A stretch of 64,000 nucleotides of DNA from the NCBI GenBank assembly GCA_963837815.1, contig CAWIOS010000015.1, forward strand, positions 129,439-193,438, read 5' to 3'. This DNA comes from Ignavibacteriota bacterium. GTDB taxonomy: Bacteria > Bacteroidota > Ignavibacteria > UBA10030 > UBA6906. The translations under genes were made by a program, and so were the position numbers. Positions within the stretch are counted from its first letter, which is position 1; each line of letters starts with the position of its first letter. Positions 1 through 43,791 of the stretch are shown piece by piece. The notes below the pieces were generated by a model. It was not told where the DNA came from. It saw nothing but the letters and a program-made list of their open reading frames with translations, and made no database searches.

Positions 1-1023
1 ACGGAACGCCTGATTGACCTGGTCGATTTCCGCCGTGCCGATGTTGCCGCCGATCGTGTTGTCTCTAAGTTCGGAATATTTCCTGGCCAGTTCGGCGAAA
101 CTCTCCCCCCCCAGGGCGCGCGTGCGCAGCGAATCCAGAAGGCGGATTGTGGCGTCGTCCCCTTCTTTCGACCGTTCAATCCTCAGGAGGATATGGCGGG
201 CATGGACCGCGTCTCCGCGGCGTTCGACGAGCAGGATGATGTGAAGCCCGTGTTCCGTTTCCACGATATCGGAGATCTGGCCGTCGGACATCGCGAAGAC
301 CGCAGATTCAAACTCTTTGACGAACTGGCCGCGCCGCACGAACCCGAGGTCTCCCCCCTGGGCTGCCGAACCGGGGTCCTGCGAATACCGTTTTGCTATT
401 GCAGCAAAGTCGGCCCCGCTTCTCACGCTGTCCAGGATCGCCTGCAGCTTGGCGCGCGTTGCCGCCTTTGCCCGCTCGTCCGGCTTCGGCGCAATGCCGA
501 TTTCCGAGAGTTCACATTCCTCGGGCACGCGGGGAAGACTGTCCCTGTACGTGCGGAAGAAATCCTCCACCTCGAACCGCCCGACGGTCATGTTTCCAAG
601 GTGCTGCTGCTGGAGTTTCTGGGCGAGGAGATTCTTGCGAAGGTCGTCCCGGAACTCCCGCTTGATGCGGGCGAGCGGCATACCGTACATTTCTTCCAGG
701 CGGGCCTCGGACCCGTATTGCTGGACGCGCTGCTGGATGACGGCGTCCATCTGCTGCTGGACTTCATCGTCAGTGACGGTGACGCTGTCTTCAACAGCCT
801 TCGCGATGATAAGTTTTTCGTTTATCATGGTTTGCAGCACCTGCGCGCGCAGCCCGGGCGTTGCGGCGTCAACCTTGTTGTTCAGCGCGTAGAACTGCAC
901 CTGGGCGTTCAGCTCGGACTCGAGGATCAGGTCGTTGTCAACGGTTGCCACAATGCGGTCGAGTGTCTGCGCCTGAACGCAGATTGGGGACGCAAGGACG
1001 AACAGGAAAAGTATTCTTTTCAT
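1..1023 (-). CDS. surA: SurA-type periplasmic chaperone / parvulin PPIase (3' end runs off the left window edge)
   Basis: Absent from the ORF track because no stop codon lies in the window. My own minus-strand translation from ATG 1023..1021 gives MKRILFLFVLASPICVQAQTLDRIVATVDNDLILESELN... This is a signal peptide and SurA N-terminal region, followed by a parvulin block (RYSQDPGSAAQGGDLGFVRRGQF...GLHIILL). The + strand ORF 193..1248 is its antisense shadow. Confidence 0.75.
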   Translation of the reverse strand, partial: MKRILFLFVLASPICVQAQTLDRIVATVDNDLILESELNAQVQFYALNNKVDAATPGLRAQVLQTMINEKLIIAKAVEDSVTVTDDEVQQQMDAVIQQRVQQYGSEARLEEMYGMPLARIKREFRDDLRKNLLAQKLQQQHLGNMTVGRFEVEDFFRTYRDSLPRVPEECELSEIGIAPKPDERAKAATRAKLQAILDSVRSGADFAAIAKRYSQDPGSAAQGGDLGFVRRGQFVKEFESAVFAMSDGQISDIVETEHGLHIILLVERRGDAVHARHILLRIERSKEGDDATIRLLDSLRTRALGGESFAELARKYSELRDNTIGGNIGTAEIDQVNQAFR

Positions 1024-1071
1024 AAGTTCTCTGCTCCGATTACGCCGGGATGTTGCCCGCCGGGAACGGGT

Positions 1072-1926
1072 TCATTCGCCCGTTGTCCCCGCGGTATCCG
1101 CGACGGCGAGGTTGACCTCGACCTTGTGACGGGTCCGCAGATCCGAAACGAGCTGTTCGTACCGGGTACGGCGCCGCTCGATGAGGAGACGCTCCCGCAC
1201 CTCGTCTTTCACGTACTCAAATTCCGGCGTCTCTCCGACATGCTTTAGACCGTGCACCGTGAGGACATAGTACCCCGCGGCGGCTTTCACGACGTAGGAA
1301 ACCTCCTCCTTCGGAAGCGTCCGGGCGAGTTTCCAGAGTTCCTCTGGGAAGAGCGTTGCCTGCGTGAAAAACTGGTCCCGTGCGACCGCCCTCAGTTCGC
1401 GGCTGTGCACGGAATCGCGCCGGCACGCCGCAAGTGCATCCTCCCACGACGAACCGCGGAGGATGGCGGCGCGAAACTGATTTGCCTCGTCCCGCTCGGA
1501 GAAGAGAGCATAGCTCACGCGCGCAACCTCTTCGCGAAGAGTGAACAAGGAAACGCTTTTCTTGAAGGCTCCCGCGACTTCCTCGTCGGACACCTCGTCC
1601 GCTCCACCGCCGTAAACTTCCTTCTCGAGCAATGCCTCTATTGCGAGGCGCTTCCGGGTCGCCTCAAGCTGCTCCCGGAGCTGGTCGGTGTCCGCCAGCC
1701 CCCGTCGCTGCGCCTCCTGGTACAGAAGTTCGTTGACAACCCATTCATTGATGAACGCCAGCGATTTCCCTCTGGCGCGCGCAAGTGAATCCGCGGGCCC
1801 GGCGAGGTCGCTCTCCCTCAGCTCGACGGAGCCGACCCTTGCGACATACGGCCGCGACGGCCCCTCGCGGGAACATCCCGCGCAGAACACAATAAGGAGA
1901 AGGCACAGATGCGCTGCGCGGGACAT
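1072..1926 (-). CDS. SurA N-domain / PpiC-type PPIase family lipoprotein
   Basis: ORF 1072..1992. The start is trimmed to the Met of MSRAAHLCLLLIVFCAGC (signal peptide with Cys), 17 nt after the upstream stop. The remainder resembles a SurA/PpiD chaperone (EWVVNELLYQEAQRRG, parvulin-like C-terminus YYVLTVHG). Confidence 0.65.
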   Translation of the reverse strand: MSRAAHLCLLLIVFCAGCSREGPSRPYVARVGSVELRESDLAGPADSLARARGKSLAFINEWVVNELLYQEAQRRGLADTDQLREQLEATRKRLAIEALLEKEVYGGGADEVSDEEVAGAFKKSVSLFTLREEVARVSYALFSERDEANQFRAAILRGSSWEDALAACRRDSVHSRELRAVARDQFFTQATLFPEELWKLARTLPKEEVSYVVKAAAGYYVLTVHGLKHVGETPEFEYVKDEVRERLLIERRRTRYEQLVSDLRTRHKVEVNLAVADTAGTTGE

Positions 1927-1942
1927 CCGGAACCGTGGGTCA

Positions 1943-4300
1943 TCAGCGGACAGTGACAAACGCATTCTTGAGAATCGGTTTGAACTCCACAACCGGATAC
2001 TTCTGTCTCAGGTGGGCAAGCCATTCGCCTTCGAGCCGTTTCGATTCGTAGTCCTGGTAAGCGCTGGAAAGCTCCGGTCCTGCCTCCTCATACGTTTTTC
2101 GGTGTGCACCGTCCCTCGCATTGAGTCTGACGATGGTATAATAACCTTTGTAGAGGAAGGGGCGGCTGATGCCCCCGACGGCAAGAGAGTCCGCACGCTG
2201 TGTGCGCTCATCGGTGGCCGGGGGGAGGATCACTGTTTCCGGCATGCCCGCCACGACGGCGGTCCGGCCGGTGAGTTCCGTGCGAATGACGTCGGTTTCA
2301 TTTCGCAGCTCGCTCGCGACACCGGGGGGGAGTGGGGATGTCACTGCTGTCACGCGCGCAGGGTCCACGGAAAGCTTCCTGACAACATACAGCCTGAGCG
2401 CCTCGAGCCGCGCCGCCGCCAGTTTCAGGTTTCGCGCCTTCGCGCTTGCGGTGTCAGGGCGCGCGGTGAGCGTAATGCGCAAGGCGGAATCATGGTGCAT
2501 TTCGCCTGCAGCGTTGGCGAGCACCGCCAGTCCTTTCGCGTCGGGCGTCACCGAGCCGCGCGCAAACTGTATCCGCCCTGTGGTGGGCGCCGCCATCCGG
2601 AGGGAATCATGTTCCGCAATCGATTCCATCGTCTCACCCGAGCGCAGCAATCCGGAAATCACCCTAGCGAGCGAGTCGGATCCCCCGCTGATTGCCGTGA
2701 CGCTGATCCGGTCGGGCCATGTGAAATTCTCCCTGTGGGCGTTGAAATAGGGCTTGAGAGCGGTATCGCCCATGACAATCTTGTTCCAAACGTGCTCCTG
2801 CTCGACCTGGTACAACAGGATGCCTTCGCGGTATTCTGCAAGCAGCGCGGCGAATTCCGGCACGCTCTTCGCGAGAAGATCCGCCTTCGCCGACAAGACA
2901 AGATGCTCGCCGATCTCGTTCACGGCAGTGATAAGAGGCAGGGCCCTCAGCGACGTGCCGCCCTGATCGGGCCGCGCGTTGATAAGATGAACGGTACTGT
3001 CAAGAGAGATGTGTTGTCCCTGGAGGGAAAAGAGCGGCTGCGCACCGAGATCGGGCGTTACCCCAGACCACCACGCGCTGTCATGCGTCGTTCTTGATGA
3101 GTCTAGGGATGCAAGGAACCGGCGGAGTGTGGCATCGAACATCTCGAAGCGCACTTCCTTCTTCACCTTGGTGAGGAACTTCGCATAGTCGTCCTGATAC
3201 CGGAGCTGCTGGTAGATCGGCTGCAGCTCCTGCTTTGCCGCCTCGAAGGTCTTGCGGGGACGGACGTCGAAGCACTTGATGAGATGGTATCCGTAGGGCG
3301 TCCGGACGATATCGGACACTTGGCCCGGCTTGAGGATCATTGCCACTTCGTCGAACGGCTGAACCCAGCGGCGGCGTGAGAAGTATCCGAGATCCCCCCC
3401 CTTACCCGACGAACCGGGATCCTCCGAGTGACGCTTCGCAAGTGAGGCAAAATCGGTTCCTGCGGCAAGACTGTCCTTGAGTGCCTTGATTTTGGCATAC
3501 GCCTGGGCCGTGTCCTGCGGCGACGGATTCTGGTTCTGGAATCTGATCATGATATGGCTCGCGTGCACTTCACCGGGTGAGGGCTTGCGGTCCACGATCT
3601 TGATTACGTGCAATCCGTACTGTGTGCGCACGGGTGCCGGGGAGATTTCGCCGATCTTCATGCCGAATGCGGCGTCCTCGAAGGGCGTGACGAGCTGTCC
3701 TGCCGTGAAATAATAGAGGTCGCCCTTGTTGATCTTCACCGAGGGGTCCTGGGAATTCTCGACGGCAAGAGCCCCGAAATCGGCCCCCGATTTTGCAGCG
3801 GCGATGATCTCGTATGCTTTCTTATATGCCGTTGCGGAATCTGCCGGAGACGCCGTCGGGCTCAGCGTCAAGAGTATATGGCTTGCGCGGATTTCCTCGT
3901 TCTGCCTTGCGTAGAGCTGCCTGACCCCGGGGGCGATGATCTCCCGCTCCGTAAGGTAGGAAGACGCAAGGCTCCCCTTGTACGCCCCGATCTCGTACAG
4001 GACCCCGGGGAGAGAGTCGAGTCCCTCGCCGTATGCGCCGGCAAGCTTGAGCCGGTACTTGACGACAAGGTCGAGAAACTTCTCGCGGTCGTCCAGGCTT
4101 GTCGCGGCGCCCGCTTCCCGGCTTCCAAGGGTTTTGAGATACTGCTGTTCGTATTCCGAGAGCTTCAGGGGTTGGCTGCCGACGGTGGCAACGATTGCAT
4201 CGTGTTCTGCCGGGGCACAACCGGCATACATGATTGATCCGACAATCACCGCGGCGAAACAAAAACGACTCTGAGTTCTGGCCTGTTGAGACATGCGCAT
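1943..4300 (-). CDS. PpiD-like multi-domain peptidyl-prolyl isomerase lipoprotein
   Basis: ORF 1943..4387, start trimmed to MRMSQQARTQSRFCFAAVIVGSIMYAGC (lipoprotein-type signal). It has two parvulin blocks (ASHILL...GDLYYF...GLHVIK and ASHIMI...GGDLGYFSRRRWVQPFDE...GYHLIK). Confidence 0.75.
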   Translation of the reverse strand: MRMSQQARTQSRFCFAAVIVGSIMYAGCAPAEHDAIVATVGSQPLKLSEYEQQYLKTLGSREAGAATSLDDREKFLDLVVKYRLKLAGAYGEGLDSLPGVLYEIGAYKGSLASSYLTEREIIAPGVRQLYARQNEEIRASHILLTLSPTASPADSATAYKKAYEIIAAAKSGADFGALAVENSQDPSVKINKGDLYYFTAGQLVTPFEDAAFGMKIGEISPAPVRTQYGLHVIKIVDRKPSPGEVHASHIMIRFQNQNPSPQDTAQAYAKIKALKDSLAAGTDFASLAKRHSEDPGSSGKGGDLGYFSRRRWVQPFDEVAMILKPGQVSDIVRTPYGYHLIKCFDVRPRKTFEAAKQELQPIYQQLRYQDDYAKFLTKVKKEVRFEMFDATLRRFLASLDSSRTTHDSAWWSGVTPDLGAQPLFSLQGQHISLDSTVHLINARPDQGGTSLRALPLITAVNEIGEHLVLSAKADLLAKSVPEFAALLAEYREGILLYQVEQEHVWNKIVMGDTALKPYFNAHRENFTWPDRISVTAISGGSDSLARVISGLLRSGETMESIAEHDSLRMAAPTTGRIQFARGSVTPDAKGLAVLANAAGEMHHDSALRITLTARPDTASAKARNLKLAAARLEALRLYVVRKLSVDPARVTAVTSPLPPGVASELRNETDVIRTELTGRTAVVAGMPETVILPPATDERTQRADSLAVGGISRPFLYKGYYTIVRLNARDGAHRKTYEEAGPELSSAYQDYESKRLEGEWLAHLRQKYPVVEFKPILKNAFVTVR

Positions 4301-4401
4301 CCTCGAGATCTGGAACAATGAACGACGTTGATGTATCAAGGGAAATTCGTAGATCTCTATACTAAAGAAAAGAGGGGTGAGAATCAAGAAATCGTGGGTA
4401 C

Positions 4402-5652
4402 TCAGCCTCCAGCGGAAAGCGCCTGGTCAAAATCGGCCTCGATATCCTGAATTCCTTCAATTCCCAATGAAATTCTTATCATCCCGGGGCTAACGCCATG
4501 ACGCGCGAGCTCGGCGGTGCTCATATTCACGTGGGATGAATACACGGGAATGCTCACGAGCGTTTCAACTCCCCCCAGTGACATCGCGTTGACGGCGATG
4601 CGGAGCGCGTCGCAGACGGCGGCCGCACCGCGCGCACCGCCCGGCACCTCGATTGTAACAATGCCGCCGAATCCATCCCCTCCCGGGCCTGTCATCTGCC
4701 TCCTGGCGATCTGGTGTCCCGGATGAGAAACGAGACCGGGATACAGGACGCGTTTCACCCGGGGGTGTGCCTCGAGAAAACCTGCGAGTGCCATTGCATT
4801 GCGGTTCTGGCACCGGACCCTGAGATCAAACGTCTTCAGGCTTCGAAGAAGAAGATACGCGGCAAAGGGGTCCGCGCACCCTCCGTAATACTTGAGTTGA
4901 GTATGGGCACCGGAAATGAACGATGCGCTCCCGACGACGACGCCCGCCATGACGTCCGTGTGACCCCCCAGGTACTTTGTGGCGCTCTCCAGGAGGACAT
5001 CGGCGCCCAGGGCCAGGGGGTTCTGATTGCGGACGGTGGCGAAGGTGTTGTCGGCAAACGTCAGAATCCTGTGGTGCACCTTCTTTGCGGCCTGACGTGC
5101 CCGGAACACCATCTCGGCGATGTCCACGATCCCCAGCGTCGGATTTGTGGGCGTTTCGCAGTAGATGATCTTTGTCCTTTTTGTCGCCATCGAGACAATG
5201 GATCCGAGCGCGTCCGGCCGGACGTAGCGGACTGTGATGCCGTGGCGGGGGAGGATATCCCTGAAAAACCGGTATGTTCCCCCATACAGCGCCGGCGTGC
5301 TGAGAATCTCGTCCCCCTGCCTCACGACCGAGAGTATCGCCGAGGTGATCGCCGCCATCCCTGACGAGAACAGGAGAGCTTTTTCCGCTCCCGCCATCAG
5401 CGCAAGGCGCTCCTCCGCCTCCGTCACCGTGGGATTGTGGTAGCGGGTGTACACGTACACGTCGGGGTCCCCCTGTGCATAGCGGATCGCATCGCCCGAG
5501 TCGGCGAACCTGTATGTCGAGGTCTGAACAATGGGGGGCGCAACGGGTCCCCGGAACGCGTACAGCTTTTTCCCATGTATCGCGCGCGTAGCAAGCGACT
5601 GTTGTTCGGGGAGCGGAACGGGGGATTTCACTGCACGGCGTCCGGTTTTCAT
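4402..5652 (-). CDS. PLP-dependent Cys/Met-metabolism enzyme (cystathionine gamma-synthase / beta-lyase / methionine gamma-lyase family)
   Basis: 416 aa with the family hallmarks TRAIHG, YTRYHNPT and SATKYLGGH (PLP-lysine motif). Its start overlaps the panE stop by 4 nt. Confidence 0.85.
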   Translation of the reverse strand: MKTGRRAVKSPVPLPEQQSLATRAIHGKKLYAFRGPVAPPIVQTSTYRFADSGDAIRYAQGDPDVYVYTRYHNPTVTEAEERLALMAGAEKALLFSSGMAAITSAILSVVRQGDEILSTPALYGGTYRFFRDILPRHGITVRYVRPDALGSIVSMATKRTKIIYCETPTNPTLGIVDIAEMVFRARQAAKKVHHRILTFADNTFATVRNQNPLALGADVLLESATKYLGGHTDVMAGVVVGSASFISGAHTQLKYYGGCADPFAAYLLLRSLKTFDLRVRCQNRNAMALAGFLEAHPRVKRVLYPGLVSHPGHQIARRQMTGPGGDGFGGIVTIEVPGGARGAAAVCDALRIAVNAMSLGGVETLVSIPVYSSHVNMSTAELARHGVSPGMIRISLGIEGIQDIEADFDQALSAGG

Positions 5653-6590
5653 CGTGTGCTTTCGCTGTTGTGGAGGTGATGGGGAAGAAGTGCGGCATAC
5701 ACCGCCCGGTTTACGGGCGTCGGAACACCCAGAGCCGTGCCCAGCCGGACCACGGTGCCCGCGAGCGCTTCTATCTCGAGCGGCTTGCCGTGGACGAGAT
5801 CATGATACAGGGACGAACGCGTCCTGGTATCGAAACCGGGGAGCGACTCGAGAATGCCGTCGAGAAAGTGATCCTCGATCCGCACCCCCCGGGCCCGCGC
5901 GATGCTCTCGGTTTCCTTCATCGCGTCCACGAGGAGGTCGCGGGTTTCCCCTACGGCGAGGATCTCTCCCAGCGTGAGCCGGGTCAGTGCCGTGATGCCC
6001 CCCGCACCCGTGATGAATATGAATTTCTTCCAGAGTGCTGCGACGATGTCATCGGGGACGTCGGCAGTAAACCCCGCGTGCACGCAGACATCGCGGATTC
6101 GGTCCGCGCACCGACGCTCCTCCGGCGGGGCACCTTCAAACGGTCCGAACACGATCCTGGAGGGGCCCGGAGCAACGGTGATTTCGCCGGGGCGCGTGAT
6201 CGTGGAATAAATGTACGCGGCCCCGCCGAAGATCATGCACTCCGGAAGGACGCGCTTGAGCGTTCCTTCATTGTCGATTCCGTTTTGAAGGCTGATGATG
6301 ACCGTGGAGGGGCCGAGAAGGGGTGAGAGCGCAGGGATGGCCCGCTCGGTGTCGTGCGACTTGACACAGAGGAAGACGGTGTCCACGGGTCCGATCTCGC
6401 CGGGAGATCCGACGCACCGTTCCGGGGGAACCCGCAACGACCGTCCGGGGGACGTCACACGCAACCCGTCTCTGCGCATCGCCTCAAGATGCGACCCGCG
6501 TGCCGTGAACATGACATCTTCGCCTCCCGCCGCCAGCATTGCGCCGAAGAACCCGCCGACCCCCCCTGCACCGATCACGGCAAATCGCAT
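5649..6590 (-). CDS. panE: 2-dehydropantoate 2-reductase (ketopantoate reductase)
   Basis: 313 aa. The N-terminal Rossmann motif is MRFAVIGAGGVGGFFGAMLA, and the ApbA/PanE-like C-terminal half contains SSLYHDL..GKPLEIEAL. Confidence 0.8.
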   Translation of the reverse strand: MRFAVIGAGGVGGFFGAMLAAGGEDVMFTARGSHLEAMRRDGLRVTSPGRSLRVPPERCVGSPGEIGPVDTVFLCVKSHDTERAIPALSPLLGPSTVIISLQNGIDNEGTLKRVLPECMIFGGAAYIYSTITRPGEITVAPGPSRIVFGPFEGAPPEERRCADRIRDVCVHAGFTADVPDDIVAALWKKFIFITGAGGITALTRLTLGEILAVGETRDLLVDAMKETESIARARGVRIEDHFLDGILESLPGFDTRTRSSLYHDLVHGKPLEIEALAGTVVRLGTALGVPTPVNRAVYAALLPHHLHNSESTR

Positions 6591-6624
6591 TTCATTGCCC
6601 CCGGGGTTATGAATGGAATCACGT

Positions 6625-8277
6625 TTATCCTCCCACTGCCGCGGGGAGCGCGGGGCGGGCGAAGAGCACTTTCTCCCGCTCGATCATGACAGTTCCTGCG
6701 GGTGCTCCCCGCGGCTTACGGACAAAACGCTTCTCGGTCATCGCCACGGCAACCGTTCCCGAGTTTTTCATTTTGCTGTAGTACGCGGCGATGGCCGCGG
6801 CCTGTTCACACGCCTTCTTCCCCGGCTCACCTTTTCCCGAATGCACCTTCAGCACCACATGAGACCCACTTCCACCGCGCGCGTGGAACCACAGATCGTC
6901 GGGTTTTGCGTACCGGAGTGTGAGAAGGTCGTTGTTCGCGCCGTTCTTCCCGGCCCAGACTTCAAAGCCTCCGTCCACGGTGAAAATGCGGAACGGCAGT
7001 CGTTCTTTTTCTCGGCTTCTGGCTCCGAGTCCGACGCTTTCAAGCTCTTCCGCATGTTCGGTCACGAACTTCTCCCCCCGTTCTTCCGGTGACAGTTTCT
7101 CCGCTCCTGCAAGGAGTTGTTCAAGTCGCTCGATCCGGGCGGAAATCTCTATCATTCGGCGTGCCGATTCTTCAGCGGCGGATTTTGCGCGTTTGGCTTT
7201 TTCGAAATAGCGCTGGGCATTCTGAACGGGTGAGAGGGCTGGCTCGAGAGGTATGGAGACGGGTTCCCCCTCGATCGTTCCGTCATACGCTCTCGATCCC
7301 CTGTGGAGGTCCGGAAGCGCCGCCATGAGGGCATTGCCGAACCGTTCGTATGTCCCGGACCTCCCAGCTTCCTGCGCATCCATATGAATTGCCTGGAGCG
7401 CCCGCTTTTCTTTCTCGATACGCTGCCGGAGCGGCGTGAGGAGAGACTCCTTCTCTCCGTCGAGAAGCGTTCTGGACGCCCTGCGGGCAAGGAAGAACCT
7501 GATTCCCCTGTTGACGTCGGGGAAGAGTTCTTCCCTCATGCCGCCGGCGAGCATGAGGGGGACGAGCGAGAAATACGCCGGGACACCTTCCTCCGAAATG
7601 TACACTCTCGCAAGCGGCCTTTCAAGGTCTGTCAGCACCGAACAAATCCCGCGTTCGAGAGCCGCAAAGGTCCCGGAATCCAACCCGTCGGTCATAAGTG
7701 ACGCGTCTACCCCGGCCCGAGTGACAGATTCCAGCGCAAGTGTACCGCCCATCGCCGGAAAGGACCTCCTGATGGCGGACACGACACTCCGCGCTTCCGG
7801 AGATGCACAGGCGGCCCGGAACGCCTGAATGTCCCCTGCGGGGGTCGCAGGCGCGAAATGAAATGAAGTGCCCGCGAGTTTTTTCGGGTTCTTGAACGAA
7901 TCAAGGATCGTCCCCCCGTCCCCCAGGAGAAGCACATTTGACCTTGGTCCGTAAAGAACGGCCGCGAGCGTCGACCCGCTGTCGAGACCGATTTCCACGA
8001 CGCGGTCTGTCGGGCGCAGTCTCACGCTGTTCACGTGCGTGTCCACGATATCGCCGAGGAGATCAACCGAATTCCGGCGGGCCCTGGTTCTCCCCTCGTG
8101 CATGTAAAGTGCGCTGACATCCGGCCTGCAGAGGAATACGAGCTCCCCCGGATCGTCATGAAATGCAATTGCGAGCTCGTCCGCGTGCTGCGAGTATACC
8201 GCACGGATTCGTTTTCCCGGGATACCGGAATTGAACGTGGAAACGAGGAGGAGAAAAGTGTAGTAATTGCTGATCAC
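6625..8277 (-). CDS. NFACT-family protein (FbpA/RqcH-like ribosome quality-control factor)
   Basis: 550 aa. It has an NFACT-N-like N-terminus, a coiled-coil middle, and a C-terminal NFACT-R/DUF814 signature (DDLWFHARGGSGSHVVLK...AAAIAAYYSK). Confidence 0.75.
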   Translation of the reverse strand: MISNYYTFLLLVSTFNSGIPGKRIRAVYSQHADELAIAFHDDPGELVFLCRPDVSALYMHEGRTRARRNSVDLLGDIVDTHVNSVRLRPTDRVVEIGLDSGSTLAAVLYGPRSNVLLLGDGGTILDSFKNPKKLAGTSFHFAPATPAGDIQAFRAACASPEARSVVSAIRRSFPAMGGTLALESVTRAGVDASLMTDGLDSGTFAALERGICSVLTDLERPLARVYISEEGVPAYFSLVPLMLAGGMREELFPDVNRGIRFFLARRASRTLLDGEKESLLTPLRQRIEKEKRALQAIHMDAQEAGRSGTYERFGNALMAALPDLHRGSRAYDGTIEGEPVSIPLEPALSPVQNAQRYFEKAKRAKSAAEESARRMIEISARIERLEQLLAGAEKLSPEERGEKFVTEHAEELESVGLGARSREKERLPFRIFTVDGGFEVWAGKNGANNDLLTLRYAKPDDLWFHARGGSGSHVVLKVHSGKGEPGKKACEQAAAIAAYYSKMKNSGTVAVAMTEKRFVRKPRGAPAGTVMIEREKVLFARPALPAAVGG

Positions 8278-37459: not shown

Positions 37460-38170
37460 CTACCGTACGAGCGCCAGCATCTCCTTGACGGCTCGCTCAA
37501 GACCCACGAACATCGCTCGCGCAATCACCGCGTGCCCTATGCTCACCTCATCGATGTCTGCGATCGTCCGGAACTGAATCATGTTGAGATAGTTCAAACC
37601 GTGCCCGGCGTTGACGCCCAGCCCGAGATCCCGGGCCATTCGCGCAGAGTTCTTCACGGCCTGGAGGAGGCTGTGCTGTTTCTTCTCCGTAGGCGCGTTG
37701 GCAAACGCTCCGGTGTGAATCTCGATTGTGTCCGCGCCCGCCTGCTTCGCGGCCTCGATCTGATCCGGAAGGGGATCGATAAAGAGGCTTACCCGGATCC
37801 CGCTGTCCTTCAGACGCGAAACAACGTCCCGCACGCGGCCCGGGTTCCCCCGCACGTCAAGACCCCCCTCCGTTGTCAGTTCCTGCCGCCGTTCGGGAAC
37901 GAGCGTCGCAAGTTCGGGCCGTGTCGCAAGCGCGATGGCAACGATTTCGTCGGTCGCGGCCATCTCCAGGTCGAGCTTTGTCTTCACAGTCTCCTTCAGG
38001 ATGCGCAGATCCCTGTCGTTGATGTGCCTCCGGTCCTCCCGCAGGTGGCACACGATCCCCTCAGCCCCCGCGAGTTCGCACAGGTGTGCCGCGGTGACAG
38101 GGTCGGGCTCGTTTCCGCCGCGGGCCTGGCGCAGCGTGGCGACATGATCGATGTTGATTGAAAGTTTCAT
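37460..38170 (-). CDS. pdxJ: pyridoxine 5'-phosphate synthase
   Basis: ORF 37460..38239, start trimmed to MKLSINIDHVATLRQARGG. It contains CHLREDRRHI, and the start overlaps the ybbR stop. Confidence 0.95.
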   Translation of the reverse strand: MKLSINIDHVATLRQARGGNEPDPVTAAHLCELAGAEGIVCHLREDRRHINDRDLRILKETVKTKLDLEMAATDEIVAIALATRPELATLVPERRQELTTEGGLDVRGNPGRVRDVVSRLKDSGIRVSLFIDPLPDQIEAAKQAGADTIEIHTGAFANAPTEKKQHSLLQAVKNSARMARDLGLGVNAGHGLNYLNMIQFRTIADIDEVSIGHAVIARAMFVGLERAVKEMLALVR

Positions 38171-39090
38171 AGGCGTTTTCTGACGATGTACTGAAGATGA
38201 TCGGGTCGTTTTGTCACGAGCTGGACTCCGGCGGGGCACGAGACGTCGGTATCAATGGCCCCGGTGGAATCTGCGGCGATCTCGGCGTACGATGTTTCGA
38301 CGCGAAAGTCCGCCGCGTTGAGCGCGGAGAGCTGCCGGATGCCTGCTCGCACGACAATTTCGATGCGCGGCGGGATCAGGATCACTTCCCTGTTTGCAGG
38401 AACAGCGACAACCTGCACCGGAAGTCCCGGGATGATCTTTTCGGCGAAGGGTTCGACGGAGATGGCGATACGCACGGAGGGAACCGAGAACGCAACCTCA
38501 TAGGGATCGGCGGACGCCAGGGGGACCTCGGCGTCAAGCGATGCCCTGATATTCTCAAACACCCGGCGCTCCGTCTTCCAGCTGTCGAGGCCACGCAGAA
38601 CCGTTGCCGCACCAGTCAGCGTCACACTGTCCGGGGCGACGGAAGTTGGTCCGACCTGTCCGTACCCCTCCCGGAAGCTCGCGAGACAGTCGAGGACAAC
38701 GGGAACCCTCTTGCGCACGGCTGAACCCAGCTCGATCCGGAGCGAATCGGGCTTCACGTCGAGGAGTCTCACCCCGGGGGCCAGGGAGATATGATCGGCG
38801 AAATCATTGAATGTGAGTGGTCGGTGGCCTGCGGGGAGCGACGAAGTGGAAAGTGCGATCACCGGCGTGCGCCCGAGAAGCACCCCCGCAAGCCGCCAGC
38901 CTTCCCCGCGGAAACGGAGCTGCATCATATGCGGGAGAGGCGTCTCCACCGCCATGCCGGCGGGGATCTCCTGCAGGACAAGCGGCACGGCGACGGTGGT
39001 CTCGTAGTCCTCGCGCATGGTGACGGAAACCCATGCCAGCACTCCGAAGAGCGTGGAGAATATCGCGATATAGAGGGAGCGTTGCTGCAT
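38167..39090 (-). CDS. YbbR-domain protein (CdaR-like)
   Basis: 307 aa with an N-terminal TM segment (LYIAIFSTLFGVLAWV) followed by repeated beta-rich YbbR-like modules. Confidence 0.7.
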   Translation of the reverse strand: MQQRSLYIAIFSTLFGVLAWVSVTMREDYETTVAVPLVLQEIPAGMAVETPLPHMMQLRFRGEGWRLAGVLLGRTPVIALSTSSLPAGHRPLTFNDFADHISLAPGVRLLDVKPDSLRIELGSAVRKRVPVVLDCLASFREGYGQVGPTSVAPDSVTLTGAATVLRGLDSWKTERRVFENIRASLDAEVPLASADPYEVAFSVPSVRIAISVEPFAEKIIPGLPVQVVAVPANREVILIPPRIEIVVRAGIRQLSALNAADFRVETSYAEIAADSTGAIDTDVSCPAGVQLVTKRPDHLQYIVRKRL

Positions 39091-39151
39091 TGGCCGGAAA
39101 AAAAAAGACCCCGTCGGAGAACACCAGCGGAGTCGGTCATCAGAGGCGGGT

Positions 39152-39682
39152 TCAGTTGCCGGCCCGCTTCTTCATGAGTTCGTGGATGAGGACGTCCTTG
39201 TTTGCCATCGAGATCTCCCGACCCTGGATGGAGAGACCGTCGGTGTTTCTCGCGAGACTCCTGAGCTGGTGAACCGTCATCGCGTCGAGCTGTGAGCGGA
39301 ATTCCGCGTCGTCGTCACTCGCGACAAAATCAAATTTCTCCTCTTCCGCTTCCGGAGCCTCCGGACGAGTCTCGCCGGGAATTACCCCGTGTTCCACGGA
39401 GGGGGCCGGGCGTTGAGTGAGAATGTCTTCGATATCGTCCGACGGGCGGGGGATGACGTCCGTGGACACGAGCTCCCCGACCCTCCGTGCGGCCGCGGCC
39501 CCAGCATCCACGGCGGCCTTCACCGCCGCCACCTCGCCGATCACCTGGACGGTCACTAGTCCGTTCCGGATATACTCCATCCCCAGCAGAGTGACGCTGG
39601 CGGTCTTCACCATGACGTCAGCGGCCTCGATCGAACCGACGAGGCCGCGTGTTTCAACCAGTCCCAGGGCGTAGTCAAGCAT
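39152..39682 (-). CDS. BMC-H microcompartment shell protein fused to an acidic linker and a Rho_N/HeH-like C-terminal domain
   Basis: 176 aa. Residues 1-90 or so are a Pfam00936-type BMC domain ([26 protein letters not shown]...[36 protein letters not shown]). An acidic spacer follows ([22 protein letters not shown]). The protein ends [41 protein letters not shown], which matches the Rho N-terminal / helix-extension-helix pattern. Confidence 0.85.
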
Positions 39683-40035: not shown

Positions 40036-40064
40036 AATATACCCAAGGAGCCGCACATTGTCAA
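40036..40064 (-). promoter_or_regulatory. near-consensus sigma70 promoter of the BMC shell gene pair
   Basis: The minus strand reads TTGACA-17 nt-TATATT, about 55 nt upstream of the first BMC ATG. The leader contains a CCCCGT-GCCCTG-ACGGGG hairpin and a GAAGGAG SD. Confidence 0.6.
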
Positions 40065-40076
40065 CCGCGGGCCGCT

Positions 40077-40108
40077 GTTACGCGGCGGCGTTGTTACGCG
40101 GCGGCGTT
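40077..40108. repeat. perfect 16-bp tandem duplication (GTTACGCGGCGGCGTT x2) spanning a stop codon
   Basis: Read directly from the sequence. The second copy carries the TAA stop and last codons (N-A-A-A) of the YfhO-like gene. The first copy lies 13 nt upstream of the BMC -35 box. Confidence 0.9.
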
Positions 40109-42639
40109 ATCTCCGACCGTGCCAGACGTTCCGGAAGAGGATGCACGGCGATTCACCGCCTGCCGTCGCCAGAACCCCGCCGCCGCGCAGACAACAACCA
40201 GAACCCATGCGGCGTGCGTCAGCATCCAGCCGGCGCGGTACATCGGCGGATCGAACGTAAAGATGATCTCGTGCGTTCCGGCGGGGACGAGAACCGATCG
40301 GAGGATATAGTCCGTCCTGAAAATCTCCGTCTCTTTCCCGTCGACGAATGCCTTCCAGCCGGAGGGGTAGTACACCTCGCTCAAAACAAGGAGCGCCGGC
40401 GCGGGAACATCCGTGGCGATCCGGATCTCCCGGGATTGGTACGACGTAATGCGGGGGAGGTGCACGCTGTCCGTGGGCGAGATCTGCCCGGGGAGCCGCT
40501 TGTACAGGACCGCGGTGCGGCCCGGATCGAACCCGCGGGAATTCAAGATGCGGAAGGCTTCGTCGTCCCCCGTCACCATTACCGCCTCACTCGCGTAAAA
40601 TGCCCGGGGCAACGCCGCGGGATTCCTGTAGGTGAGAACCCGTTCCGCCTGGTCCACGTTCACGAGCTGGAACTGCGGCTCCGGCAGCCTACCATGCACG
40701 ACGAGATACTGCACGTTGAGCATGTCCACGACGTTCATGTTGACGGGAAACGCCGGATCGGTGCCCCGGTACATGCAGGAATCCAGAAGCGTCTGGTAAA
40801 TTTTGAGTTTTGCGGGGCTGTATCCCGTAATCGATTGAAGCCCGTGGTAGGCGAACGCGTTGTCCATGTAAAGCGGATCGCGCGGGTCGATTCCCGCGAA
40901 TAGCCTGAACAGCCCCGGCTGGCTCTTGAGAAACGTTATCGTGGGGTCGGGCTTGAACGCCTGCGCGAGTTCCTGGGAAGGTTTCGGATCGATGTACCGC
41001 GACGCTACGAGGGACAGGTCGATTGTCACGAGGACGATGAGCGCAGCGGAAAACGTCAGCTCGCGAAGGCGTCCTTTCAGCCACACACAGCAGACGGCGC
41101 AGAGAGCGGCGGCGAGGAGCGAAAACTTCACGTAGTCCTTCCAGAAGATATCAAACCGCGCCTGGCGGAGCTGTGCGATCACGCGGCCCGCACGCGCGCC
41201 GTACTGCTGCTGGATCTGCTCCGCCTGATCCTGCTTCGTAAACATCGAGGCGGGAAGACTGTCGAGAAGGCTGCTCTGGAACAGAAGCGCGACAACAAGG
41301 AGCCCCGCGATGACGCCCCCCGTTGCAAGAAGGACGCGGTAGAGTTTCTGCGTATCGACGCCCGACTCCCGTTCTCGTGCGGCCAGAAGGATGGAAAAAC
41401 CCGTTGCGCCCAGAACGCCGGTGGCAAACGGGAGAAGGTGCAAGATCTGCTCCGGCGCGCGGAATTTGTTGAAGAAGGGGAGCCACGTGAACAGCAGCTG
41501 GTACAGGAGCGAAAAATTGCTGCCAAATGAAACGAGAACGATCATAAGCGTAACGATGCCGAAGAACATGACAAAGCGCGTCCTGCGGTAGACAAAGGCC
41601 AGCGTCCCGAACAGGATCGGAAATAGTCCCACGTACACGCTGGAATTTGTCCAGGGGATCATCGGCCCCCAGTAGTAGTCCGCTTTCATCCCGAAGAAGC
41701 CGGGGATGAGGAGCGTGACGAGTTCACCCGGGTGCCATGACCAGTTTGTCGCGTAGTCGTAAGCAAGGCCCCCCGGTGCCCCCGCCGTCCCCCCCCCGCG
41801 CATGGAGAACTGCGCGTAGTCGTACACTGAAAGGTAGATGTAAGAGGATATACAGAACCCCAGGAGGAGCGCGCCGGCAAAAAGCGTGACTTTGAAGGCG
41901 GCCTTCGGAATATTTCCTTTGAAATCCGGCAGGATGTGATAGACAAGATAGAACCCGAGAAACATGAATGCGTAGTACACGATCTGCATGTGGTTCGTCA
42001 GCATCAGCGTTCCGATGGCCGCCGCAAGGAGTCCAAGGCTCAGCGCGTCGCGCCGTTCCAGAAGCGTGTGCGTGAGAAGAACGACAAGAGGAAAATAACT
42101 GAGCGCCATGAGCTTCGACCCGTGTCCCTCCCCGGCAAGTCCCACCATGTAGGGGCTGAGCATGAACGTCAGCGCCGCAATCAGGGCTGCCGGGACGGGG
42201 AAAAGTTCCAGACGCGCATCAGAAAAAACATGAACACGCCCCCCATGAAACAGTAGACGACAAGCCATGTCCACATGCCGTTCAGGTAGAGAAGGTTCAG
42301 AACGGTCTGGAGAGCGGTCTGCACGTAGCTTACGTTGTGCGGGAGGTAGGCGACGTTGCCGAACGTGGGCATGCCGCTGAAGAAATACGGCATCCAGACG
42401 GCGTCCACCCCCTCCGCTTTCTCGATTTCGTTCCCGGCGTGCGTGTAACTCAGGGCTGCGGCAGTATCGCCCTGGGAGGCAAACGCCGCATTGTCAAAGA
42501 TGATCCCGCGGAAGACAATAAGCGTCACTGCGTACAGGAGAGCGACGCTCAGCAGGTCAAGCGTCAGCGGGGAAAACGACGAAAACGGAGACGCCGGTTT
42601 CTCGGCGGCCCTGCGGTGGTCTTTCCTGGCGTGTGCCAT
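40094..42639 (-). pseudogene. YfhO-family polytopic membrane glycosyltransferase, interrupted by one frameshift
   Basis: ORFs 42181..42675 (N-terminus, probable start MAHARKDHRR at 42639) and 40094..42274 are two frames of one protein. The N-terminal frame ends ...GGVFMFFLMRVWNFSPSRQP*, while the next frame reads ...ARLELFPVPAALIAALTFMLSPYMV. This continues the alignment with the intact paralog at 56457..58769 (MYLLASSLDLRRAPALFAGAAYMLSGFMI). The shift lies at about 42205..42215. Confidence 0.7.
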
Positions 42640-43791
42640 AGTTGCGATCCTTCCAGTTGAAGAAGTGCTGAACACTCACGGGCGCGGAAGTCCCAGTCGT
42701 TCGCTGCCGCAAAGGCGGTCAGTGTTTGGATGAATTTGGTATCCCCCCTGCGGCGCACTGCGGTGCGGAGATGTCCGATGAATTCACGGTCCGTCCCGGC
42801 GATCAGGACAATGCCGGCGAACTCTTTCGTATCGTCGGAAAAATCGGTGGCCACCGTCGGCACCCCGGCCGCGCTGTACTCATAGAGCTTGACGGGATTC
42901 ACCCCCTCCGTCAGCAGTCGTCCGCCGGAACGGAATCATTGCCGCGTCGAGGTTCCGCACGTACGCCGGCACTTCGGCATAGAGCCGGGGTCCCAGGTAC
43001 AGGAAGTTGGGATGCCGTGCCAGGCGGGCCATCTCTTCCGCCACGGAGGGATGGAGCGGTCCGATCATGACGAAATTGAACTCCGCCATCGCGCCCATCG
43101 TCCTGTCGAGAAGGCCGAAGTCGATCCACGGATAGACCGAGCCCACGTACCCCACGATCGGCGTTCCGGCCGGGGGAAGATCCAGCGGCCTGGCGGCTTC
43201 CGCTGCGAACCGTTCAAACTCCACGCCGTTGCGGACAATGTGAACGTCCCGCTCGCGGGCGTCAGTATCCGCGTGCGAAGCGTCGGCGACGTCACGCTGA
43301 CCGCGTCGGCCCGTTCGAGCGCCGGAGAGCCACTCGCGTGAACGTGCGGGGGAAATGCCGTGAAACCCGAACGCGTCGTCAATGTAGTCGAAAAGCACAC
43401 GCTTCGCCCCGACGGCTTCGGCGACGTGCATGAGCTGGAAGTTCTCGACGAAGCAGACCGTCTCTCGTCCGCCGGGCGGATCGTGCGGAGCGCGCTCCGG
43501 CGGACGAGTGCGCGCTGCAGGCGTGCCACGACAGCCCGCAGCGCCCGTGCGCGGCTGAGAAACATCGCAGCACGCCGGATGACGGGGTTCCGCGCGTTCA
43601 GAGGAAACGCCGGGACCGTCATCCGGCGGAGACCCGGGGCCACGGCGATCGGCGAGAGCATGACATGCCTGCCCAGCGTCACCGGCTCGACCCACAGGAC
43701 GTCCATCGTCCGCGACATCCTCGTCGCGAGGTGCTGCGGGCCGCTGGTAGAGGCTGTCCCAGGCAATATCGGAGAAAAAAATCAGAGTCAC
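42564..43791 (-). pseudogene. family-1 (GT-B) glycosyltransferase with the QRPQHL motif, broken by at least four or five frameshifts
   Basis: Protein-like sequence hops between ORFs 42880..43791, 43065..43766 and 42564..42902. The pieces are MTLIFFSDIAWDSLYQR | PQHLATRMSRTMDVLWVEP...RTIRP | ...VCFVENFQLMHVAEAVGAKRVLFDYIDDAFGFHG | PPHV...ALERADAVSVTSPTLRTRI | RDVHIVRNGVEFERF...VGYVGSVYPWIDFGLL...AMIPFR | NPVKLYEYSAAGVPTVATDF. The shifts lie near 43738, 43470, 43350, 43255 and 42915. The last frame overlaps the next gene's start by about 75 nt. Confidence 0.65.

Follow-up and report, generated by a model that had tools for sequence, protein, structure and literature searches.

The analyzed DNA is a 64-kb window from the genome of an Ignavibacteriota bacterium, and all coordinates below refer to positions within this window. 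It contains a gene for a shell protein of bacterial microcompartments (BMC), in which a hexamer-type core (BMC-H) is followed by an acidic disordered linker and a small folded C-terminal tail. Sequence comparisons indicate that the tail is a genuine domain under selection and constitutes a distinct family with a clan-level resemblance to helix-extension-helix (HeH) domains; in every confident case, its carrier is a BMC-H protein. The tail probably hangs outside the organelle as a tether. A plausible reading, preferred here with reserve, is that it binds nucleic acid and thereby links the shell to the nucleoid.

Architecture and conservation of the tailed shell protein

The original prediction, based on the sequence, described a BMC-H core, an acidic spacer, and a folded C-terminal module. 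The core is recognized by Pfam as a single BMC domain (PF00936) at residues 5-80 (E 3.8e-26, 91.3 bits against a cut-off of 24.5), and the two peptides quoted for the remaining parts, of 21 and 41 letters, are both found letter for letter. The three-part build agrees with the full-length AlphaFold2 (AF2) model of the monomer. In this model, the predicted local distance difference test score (pLDDT) exceeds 90 at residues 1-89, is below 50 at residues 92-115, and reaches about 80-86 at residues 120-176, with the tail helices at 125-134, 137-146, and 162-173. The predicted template modeling score of 0.48 is as expected for two independent modules. The tail begins with a leading helix, followed by the HeH core with the invariant LR..AR and GR.IS.AN(K/R) motifs and invariant L residues. 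The strand given for the gene has to be corrected to minus. The spacer is acidic in this protein (net charge -8), but acidity is not a constant feature of the family, in which the linker varies from 12 to 339 aa in length and from -101 to +14 in net charge.

The BMC core aligns by phmmer without gaps to the structures of PduA, EutM, and HO-5815, and PduA numbering is retained here. The residues responsible for tiling, K26 and P78-R79-P80, are present in the tailed protein, as are K26 and R79 in PduA. In 33 orthologs, K26, P78, and R79 never vary, and P80 is kept in at least 90%. In the 2021 BMC catalogue, basal BMC-H proteins are defined by the KAAN and PRPH motifs (Sutter et al., 2021; PMC8217296). 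The tailed protein falls outside this definition, having KTAS and PRPS in place of these motifs, whereas the 98-aa BMC-H paralog encoded next to it has KAAR and PRPH. Thus, judged by these motifs, the tailed protein is a specialized, non-basal BMC-H tile and the paralog is the bulk tile.

In a database search, full-length orthologs form at least 120 clusters, with 60-100% identity at 98-100% coverage; the hosts, where named by the sources, are metagenome-assembled genomes (MAGs) of Ignavibacteriae or Bacteroidota. In the alignment of 33 sequences, the BMC domain and the last ~55 residues are strongly and about equally conserved, and residues ~90-120 are not alignable, their composition being acidic in the window and Lys/Pro-rich in other proteins. 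The invariant residues of the tail in this alignment include L132, V137, L140, R141, A144, R145, L150, I152, G154, R155, I157, K162, L165, E168, and L169. The alignment of 40 tails, which includes other phyla, has 10 invariant columns. Since these columns are maintained while the linkers cannot be aligned, the tail is, on the evidence of the alignments, a genuine domain under selection.

The variable linker also contains conserved short motifs (window positions 39290-39345, residues ~113-131). One of them, F[DE]FVAS.DD.E[YF], is found in the clade of the window, and another, TI[SE]RLR[KR]EALG, in low-GC relatives; the observation also covers the relatives P0156, P0159, P0202, and P0205 and the 178-aa protein of locus L002. 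These motifs could be additional binding helices.

Distribution of the tail family

A profile built from 40 tail sequences was searched against 1.84 billion representative proteins (clusters at 50% identity), yielding 785 clusters at E <= 1e-3 and 484 at E <= 1e-10. Among the 150 matches listed, the tail is always at the extreme C-terminus, and the proteins are 40-467 aa long. Of 181 sequences taken from this profile search and an earlier tail search, 106 have exactly one BMC domain; most of the others are short fragments that start in the linker or inside the end of the BMC domain. In confident cases, as far as sequence can tell, the tail is attached to BMC-H proteins only. Two proteins contain a tail without a detectable BMC domain: P0273 (258 aa) has a metallo-beta-lactamase-like N-terminal part and is possibly a chimera, and P0170 (139 aa) has an unrelated Lys/Glu-rich N-terminus.

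The presence of 41 short proteins in the database suggested free-standing small tail proteins, an explanation that was rejected for the cases inspected. In locus L004, an in-frame TAA replacing GAA (4591-4593) splits the tail from the BMC-H gene; an in-frame stop does the same in L001 (7560-8147), as does a frameshift in an A-run in L002 (7441-8144), and L003 is interrupted by a scaffold gap. Such split loci in metagenomes give rise to many "hypothetical" database proteins of 41-60 aa. The splits in L004, L001, and L002 are probably assembly errors or rare mutations, and some of them may be natural split variants of the tailed gene.

The phyletic survey of the fusion that the original prediction had proposed shows hosts that include Ignavibacteriota, KSB1, Bacillota, and a relative of Chlamydiae. 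Tailed BMC-H proteins are encoded in a KSB1 genome (L038) and in Butyricicoccus (L063), and a partial protein with a BMC-H domain and the tail (P0157) carries the source label Waddliaceae. In EUT-like loci, the tailed gene is located between EutQ and an aldehyde dehydrogenase gene. In Desulfitispora alkaliphila DSM 22410 (L039; NZ_JBNPXS010000066.1, 447-7808), it is the last gene of a complete BMC locus, which contains genes for a sigma-54 activator, an amidohydrolase_2 protein, EutJ-like, EutN, PduS-like, BMC-T, and EutQ proteins, and three BMC-H proteins. This locus resembles the amidohydrolase-type BMC of unknown function, and the host, a cultured member of Bacillota, is a possible experimental system. 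As the tail occurs in the satellite pair of the window, in EUT-like loci, and in an amidohydrolase-type locus, it is independent of the cargo chemistry.

Relationship of the tail to Rho_N, SAP, and HeH domains

The tail had been assigned to the Rho_N/HeH module, with a match to PF07498 or a similar HeH fold expected. The tail of the window has no Pfam match even at E <= 10. When 31 orthologous tails were scanned singly, Rho_N was detected in 21 (best E 2.1e-6), SAP in six, and HeH/LEM in three. Among the Rho_N scores seen together with the cut-off, the best is 24.5 bits against a gathering threshold of 24.9, and full-length orthologs score 18-20 bits. The profile of the EutK C-terminal domain (EutK_C, PF16365) matches none of the 31 tails at E <= 10.

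Structural comparison yields a similar picture. The AF2 model of the tail alone (pLDDT 83.7) has helices at its residues 2-13, 16-25, and 38-53 and a 12-residue extended loop at 26-37. The top PDB entries found with it by Foldseek are the SAP domain of 3'hExo (query-normalized template modeling score 0.67, root-mean-square deviation 2.2 A) and the N-terminus of Rho (0.52-0.55), all with E > 3. No match in either PDB or BFVD has E < 0.7, the domain being too small for significance; the non-significant matches in the viral library include proteins annotated as "SAP domain containing" and "Rho termination factor N-terminal domain-containing". Sequence searches of PDB with the single tail and with a 31-sequence profile retrieved nothing relevant. 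The hhalign comparison of the tail profile with the N-terminus of Escherichia coli Rho is also non-significant (E 0.11), with both helices in register and a 5-residue insertion in the loop.

The tail, as aligned and modeled, appears to share with Rho_N (PF07498), SAP (PF02037), and HeH/LEM-like (PF12949) domains the topology of helix, extended loop, and helix, as well as the pattern L..h.V..LR.hA ... K..LI. It differs from them by a loop that is ~5 residues longer, by its own invariant motif GR.IS.AN(K/R), and by its position, always C-terminal and, in confident cases, on BMC-H proteins only. Thus, the likeness to Rho_N and HeH holds at the level of the clan in the orthologs, but membership in Rho_N does not, given the lack of a Pfam match for the tail itself, the sub-threshold scores of orthologs, and the non-significant Foldseek and hhalign results. 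The tail is best classified, on these comparisons, as a distinct family with a clan-level HeH resemblance.

Possible function of the tail

In solved shells, such as that of Haliangium ochraceum, the C-termini of BMC-H proteins lie on the concave face and are directed to the cytosol. Because of this orientation, and because the linkers can be as short as 12 aa, the tail is probably displayed outside the shell as a tether. Each hexamer of the tailed protein, or each mixed hexamer with its paralog, would then carry up to six flexible tethers on the outside of the microcompartment. The cargo sets found with the tail are unrelated, so that a generic ligand is to be expected. Nucleic acid is favored by the conserved polar residues (three Arg, Ser, Asn, and Lys/Arg) together with the fold resemblance. 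The conserved polar face, consisting of R141, R145, R155, S158, N161, and K162, would contact nucleic acid, that is, the nucleoid. Anchored in this way, the organelles would be distributed in the cell and passed on to both daughters. Tethering to the nucleoid for positioning and inheritance is suggested by analogy with EutK, for whose unrelated C-terminal domain such a role is now proposed, and with the carboxysomal McdAB system. We consider a nucleic-acid or nucleoid tether on the shell surface to be plausible, if far from assured. A more specific version, in which the tail is a built-in nucleoid anchor, so that the shell binds chromosomal DNA directly via six flexible arms and is inherited by ParA-independent "hitch-hiking", seems rather unlikely.

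Several observations weigh against nucleic acid as the ligand. The HeH core is only mildly basic (+2 in the window; the family median is +2 to +3, with a range of -2 to +7), the linker is usually acidic (median -10 in orthologs, compared with -8 here), and the net charge of the whole extension, -6, is unfavorable for non-specific DNA binding. The Rho_N likeness is sub-threshold throughout and goes undetected in the window's own protein. Moreover, protein-protein contacts are another known role of HeH, SAP, and Rho_N folds, and a domain confined to shell proteins could equally recognize a conserved shell protein or another BMC-associated protein. The hexamer and its outward orientation are assumed here, and EutK and PduK have been reported not to form homohexamers readily (PMC12058022).

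The same modest charge beside an acidic linker, together with the confinement of the family to BMC-H proteins, as would be predicted for a BMC-specific ligand, makes docking to a protein a strong rival, albeit on the less likely side. Here, the HeH domain would be a protein-protein adaptor on the outer shell surface that recruits a conserved cytosolic partner, such as a positioning ATPase, a cytoskeletal or membrane protein (for example, the neighboring YbbR-like one), or an enzyme that supplies the BMC; another possibility is that it binds neighboring shell tiles or other BMCs and cross-links them. The invariance of the loop GR.IS.AN(K/R) could be due to the high conservation of shell proteins themselves from phylum to phylum. 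A gene for a YbbR-like protein is always found behind the shell gene pair in Ignavibacteriota-type genomes, even when the outer flanks differ. On the other hand, the YbbR-like gene is absent from the Bacillota and KSB1 loci and is cut off from the shell genes by a conserved terminator, and there is no partner gene common to all contexts. The fold likeness, too, is to families best known for contacts with nucleic acids.

The ligand might also be RNA, for instance the mRNAs of shell or cargo proteins, with the tail coupling translation to shell assembly or coating the organelle. The best structural neighbors of the tail are in accordance with this, as the SAP domain of 3'hExo contacts the histone mRNA stem-loop and the other neighbor is the N-terminus of the RNA helicase Rho. 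However, these Foldseek matches are non-significant, RNA binds Rho at the OB fold located after the N-terminal helices rather than at the helices themselves, and the terminator hairpin is the only conserved RNA element beside the gene. Accordingly, we regard an RNA ligand as improbable. Even less probable is a lumenal role, with the tail as an encapsulation signal or a scaffold of the CsoS2/CcmM type that ties cargo to the inner face of the shell. A disordered linker followed by short helices is indeed the hallmark of encapsulation peptides (PMC8217296), and the additional helical linker motifs F[DE]FVAS.DD.EY and TI[SE]RLR[KR]EALG fit this description. Encapsulation peptides, though, consist of one amphipathic helix of ~18 aa that is poorly conserved in sequence and located on a cargo protein. 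The tail is a folded three-helix domain of ~50 aa with 10 invariant positions, it resides on a shell protein, and it is found with unrelated cargo sets. A known encapsulation peptide, the finding that the original prediction had named as contrary to its reading, therefore does not describe the tail. In addition, a linker of 12 aa could not reach the lumen from the outward C-terminus of BMC-H.

The pore loop

The loop Y-I-R-N-G-L lies opposite K37-I38-G39-S40-G41-L42 of PduA in the gap-free phmmer alignment (5d6v_A), and the neighboring paralog has I-G-G-G-Y; both had been stated in the original prediction. On this alignment, six arginines might ring the central pore. In the orthologs, a pattern search that parsed 112 of 120 proteins found the pore pairs RN (62), KN (26), RD (14), and GG (7), and position 39 is R or K in about 90% of the 120. 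The tail-bearing BMC cores have diverse pore loops (RNG, GGG, xPALITIK, and others), and hence the Arg-Asn pore is a feature of the clade of the window rather than of the fusion. The Arg/Lys-Asn loop would create a cationic central pore in this tile, favoring small anions, as a separate clade-specific feature.

Gene pair and genomic context

The features of the locus are listed in Table 1. A gap of 3 nt separates the stop codon of the paralog from the start of the tailed gene. The scan for promoters found one site compared with 0.4 expected, and the assignment is a consensus match only. Of 30 related loci, 22 also have a hairpin and T-run directly behind the tailed gene, and the base changes among them preserve the pairing; a simple terminator scan missed the hairpin owing to its internal bulges, and RNA folding revealed it. 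Given the promoter-like site upstream and the conserved terminator directly after the pair, the two shell genes look, at the sequence level, like a self-contained bicistronic unit.

Table 1. Features of the tailed shell gene and its surroundings (coordinates in the 64-kb window)
Feature	Position	Strand	Evidence or details
Tailed shell gene (BMC-H, linker, HeH-like tail), 176 aa	39152..39682, including stop codon	minus	ATG start; list of open reading frames
BMC domain (PF00936), residues 5-80, including edge K26 and P-R-P (R79)	39443..39670	minus	Pfam; AF2 pLDDT >90
Pore loop Y37-I38-R39-N40-G41-L42	39557..39574	minus	Gap-free alignment to PduA-type structures
Disordered acidic linker, ~residues 90-123, ending in clade motif F-D-F-V-A-S-D-D-D	39314..39415	minus	AF2; variability in the family
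C-terminal three-helix tail, residues 124-176	39155..39313	minus	Alignments; AF2 models; family-level Pfam matches; 785 clusters
Upstream paralog, basal-type BMC-H, 98 aa	39686..39982	minus	Pfam BMC E 3.6e-29; VKAAR, IGGGY pore, PRPH
Sigma-70-like promoter match TTGACA-17-TATATT, 11/12	40036..40064	minus	Consensus scan; upstream of the BMC-H pair
Terminator-like hairpin (GACUCCG.UGG ... CCG.CGGGGUC), then U9	39098..39134	minus	RNA fold; directly 3' of the tailed-gene stop codon
Downstream neighbor, 307 aa, N-terminal hydrophobic segment, weak YbbR match	38167..39090	minus	Pfam YbbR E 0.0015, below cut-off

The order of genes is conserved in ~35 syntenic MAGs of Ignavibacteriota or "Bacteroidota": YfhO-like, BMC-H (98 aa), BMC-H with the tail, YbbR-like (307 aa), and PdxJ, followed by the BFN (bifunctional nuclease) and ETF genes on the opposite strand. 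Across these MAGs, the 98-aa paralog is 89-97% identical. In distant low-GC relatives, the outer flanks are RelA/SpoT and RuvX upstream and Tmk and an S41 peptidase downstream, and the trio of BMC-H, tailed BMC-H, and YbbR-like genes is retained despite this change. A YbbR-like gene of ~305 codons is also found behind the pair in L002 (8226-9140) and L085 (10921-11832). Co-transcription of the YbbR-like gene with the pair was considered and is weakened by the conserved hairpin and U-run between the genes. Its synteny with the shell genes may reflect either a functional link or inherited gene order.

The other neighbors of the pair are housekeeping genes (PdxJ, ETF, BFN nuclease, and YfhO-like). 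The YfhO-like gene (40094-42675, minus strand) consists of two overlapping open reading frames in different frames (164 aa and 726 aa) with a junction at ~42185-42200. In the related loci L005, L013, L016, and L021, it is a single frame of 847-874 aa, and hence the copy in the window carries a frameshift, either a sequencing error or the mark of a pseudogene.

No further BMC genes were found in the 64 kb, including by tblastn for EutN/CcmL (BMC-P), AldDh, and PduL. The pair thus shows the local properties of a satellite locus: one class of shell protein, two contiguous PF00936 genes, and no BMC enzymes nearby. FRAG-type and satellite loci (Sutter et al., 2021; Axen et al., 2014) likewise consist of contiguous PF00936-only genes remote from enzymes, and they also occur in Ignavibacteriae-type genomes (PMC4207490 and PMC8217296). 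Satellite loci accompany a main locus elsewhere in the genome and FRAG types are defined by a BMC-P triplet; the likeness is judged here from the 64-kb window, which lacks BMC-P. The pattern of scattered loci exists in this phylum, as Melioribacter roseus has seven BMC-P genes in five loci (PMC4207490). By its gene content, the pair resembles a satellite or FRAG-type shell locus.

If the tail were indeed a nucleoid anchor, the Ignavibacteriota pair could represent a shell or sheet that is permanently present and associated with the nucleoid, and not a catabolic organelle made on induction. This possibility is raised by the pair having its own promoter-like site and terminator, by the housekeeping setting, and by the extreme conservation of the paralog.

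Comparison with known systems

The McdAB system of carboxysomes, a pair of a ParA-type ATPase and an adaptor, binds shell proteins in trans and links the BMC surface to the nucleoid. It is a functional analog of the role proposed for the tail, since in both cases the organelles would be spaced and inherited via a link to the nucleoid (10.1101/334813; PMC8262871). The difference is that the putative nucleoid-binding element described here is built into the shell subunit. Among the immediate neighbors of the pair, where no systematic search was made, no ParA-like gene is evident.

The closest parallel to the fusion itself is provided by EutK, in which, as in the tailed protein, a flexible linker joins the BMC-H core to a small helical domain at the C-terminus that is of a nucleic-acid-binding type (in EutK, PF16365; PMC12058022). 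EutK is a minor shell component with a positively charged C-terminal domain, and it has been linked to how Eut BMCs are distributed within the cell (PMC12487888). In contrast to EutK, the tail described here belongs to another fold family, HeH-like rather than helix-turn-helix, is weakly basic and preceded by an acidic linker, and occurs in other phyla and BMC types. The plan of a shell core with a largely disordered C-terminal extension is also shared with PduK and CmcE. PduK affects where Pdu BMCs are located in the cell (PMC12487888); its tail ends in a Cys-rich Fe-S motif, whereas the tail of the window has no cysteine motif and ends in the HeH-like domain. CmcE forms mixed hexamers with canonical paralogs (PMC12058022), and mixed hexamers of the tailed protein with the adjacent 98-aa paralog are plausible as well.

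The original prediction named no characterized example of such a fusion. The literature on microcompartment proteins fused to Rho_N or SAP domains, and on shell proteins with a DNA-binding or nucleoid tether, contains no description of it that we found, but EutK is a partial precedent. BMC-H proteins with C-terminal extensions of up to 200 aa are noted in the 2021 catalogue, the searched passages of which do not describe this domain (PMC8217296). Thus, the concept has a precedent in EutK, and the HeH-tail family itself is one for which we found no description.

The positioning and inheritance of non-carboxysomal microcompartments are largely open questions, and the tails of EutK and PduK have been implicated in them only recently. 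To these, the present analysis adds a large family (785 clusters at 50% identity), distributed across phyla and BMC types, with a different folded tail on a disordered arm. As a candidate surface tether, the tail might bind DNA, RNA, or a protein, and it would act independently of the encapsulated chemistry. It would also be a natural handle for the display or anchoring of engineered shells, and for the enigmatic FRAG and satellite shell genes of Ignavibacteriota it offers a hint of function.

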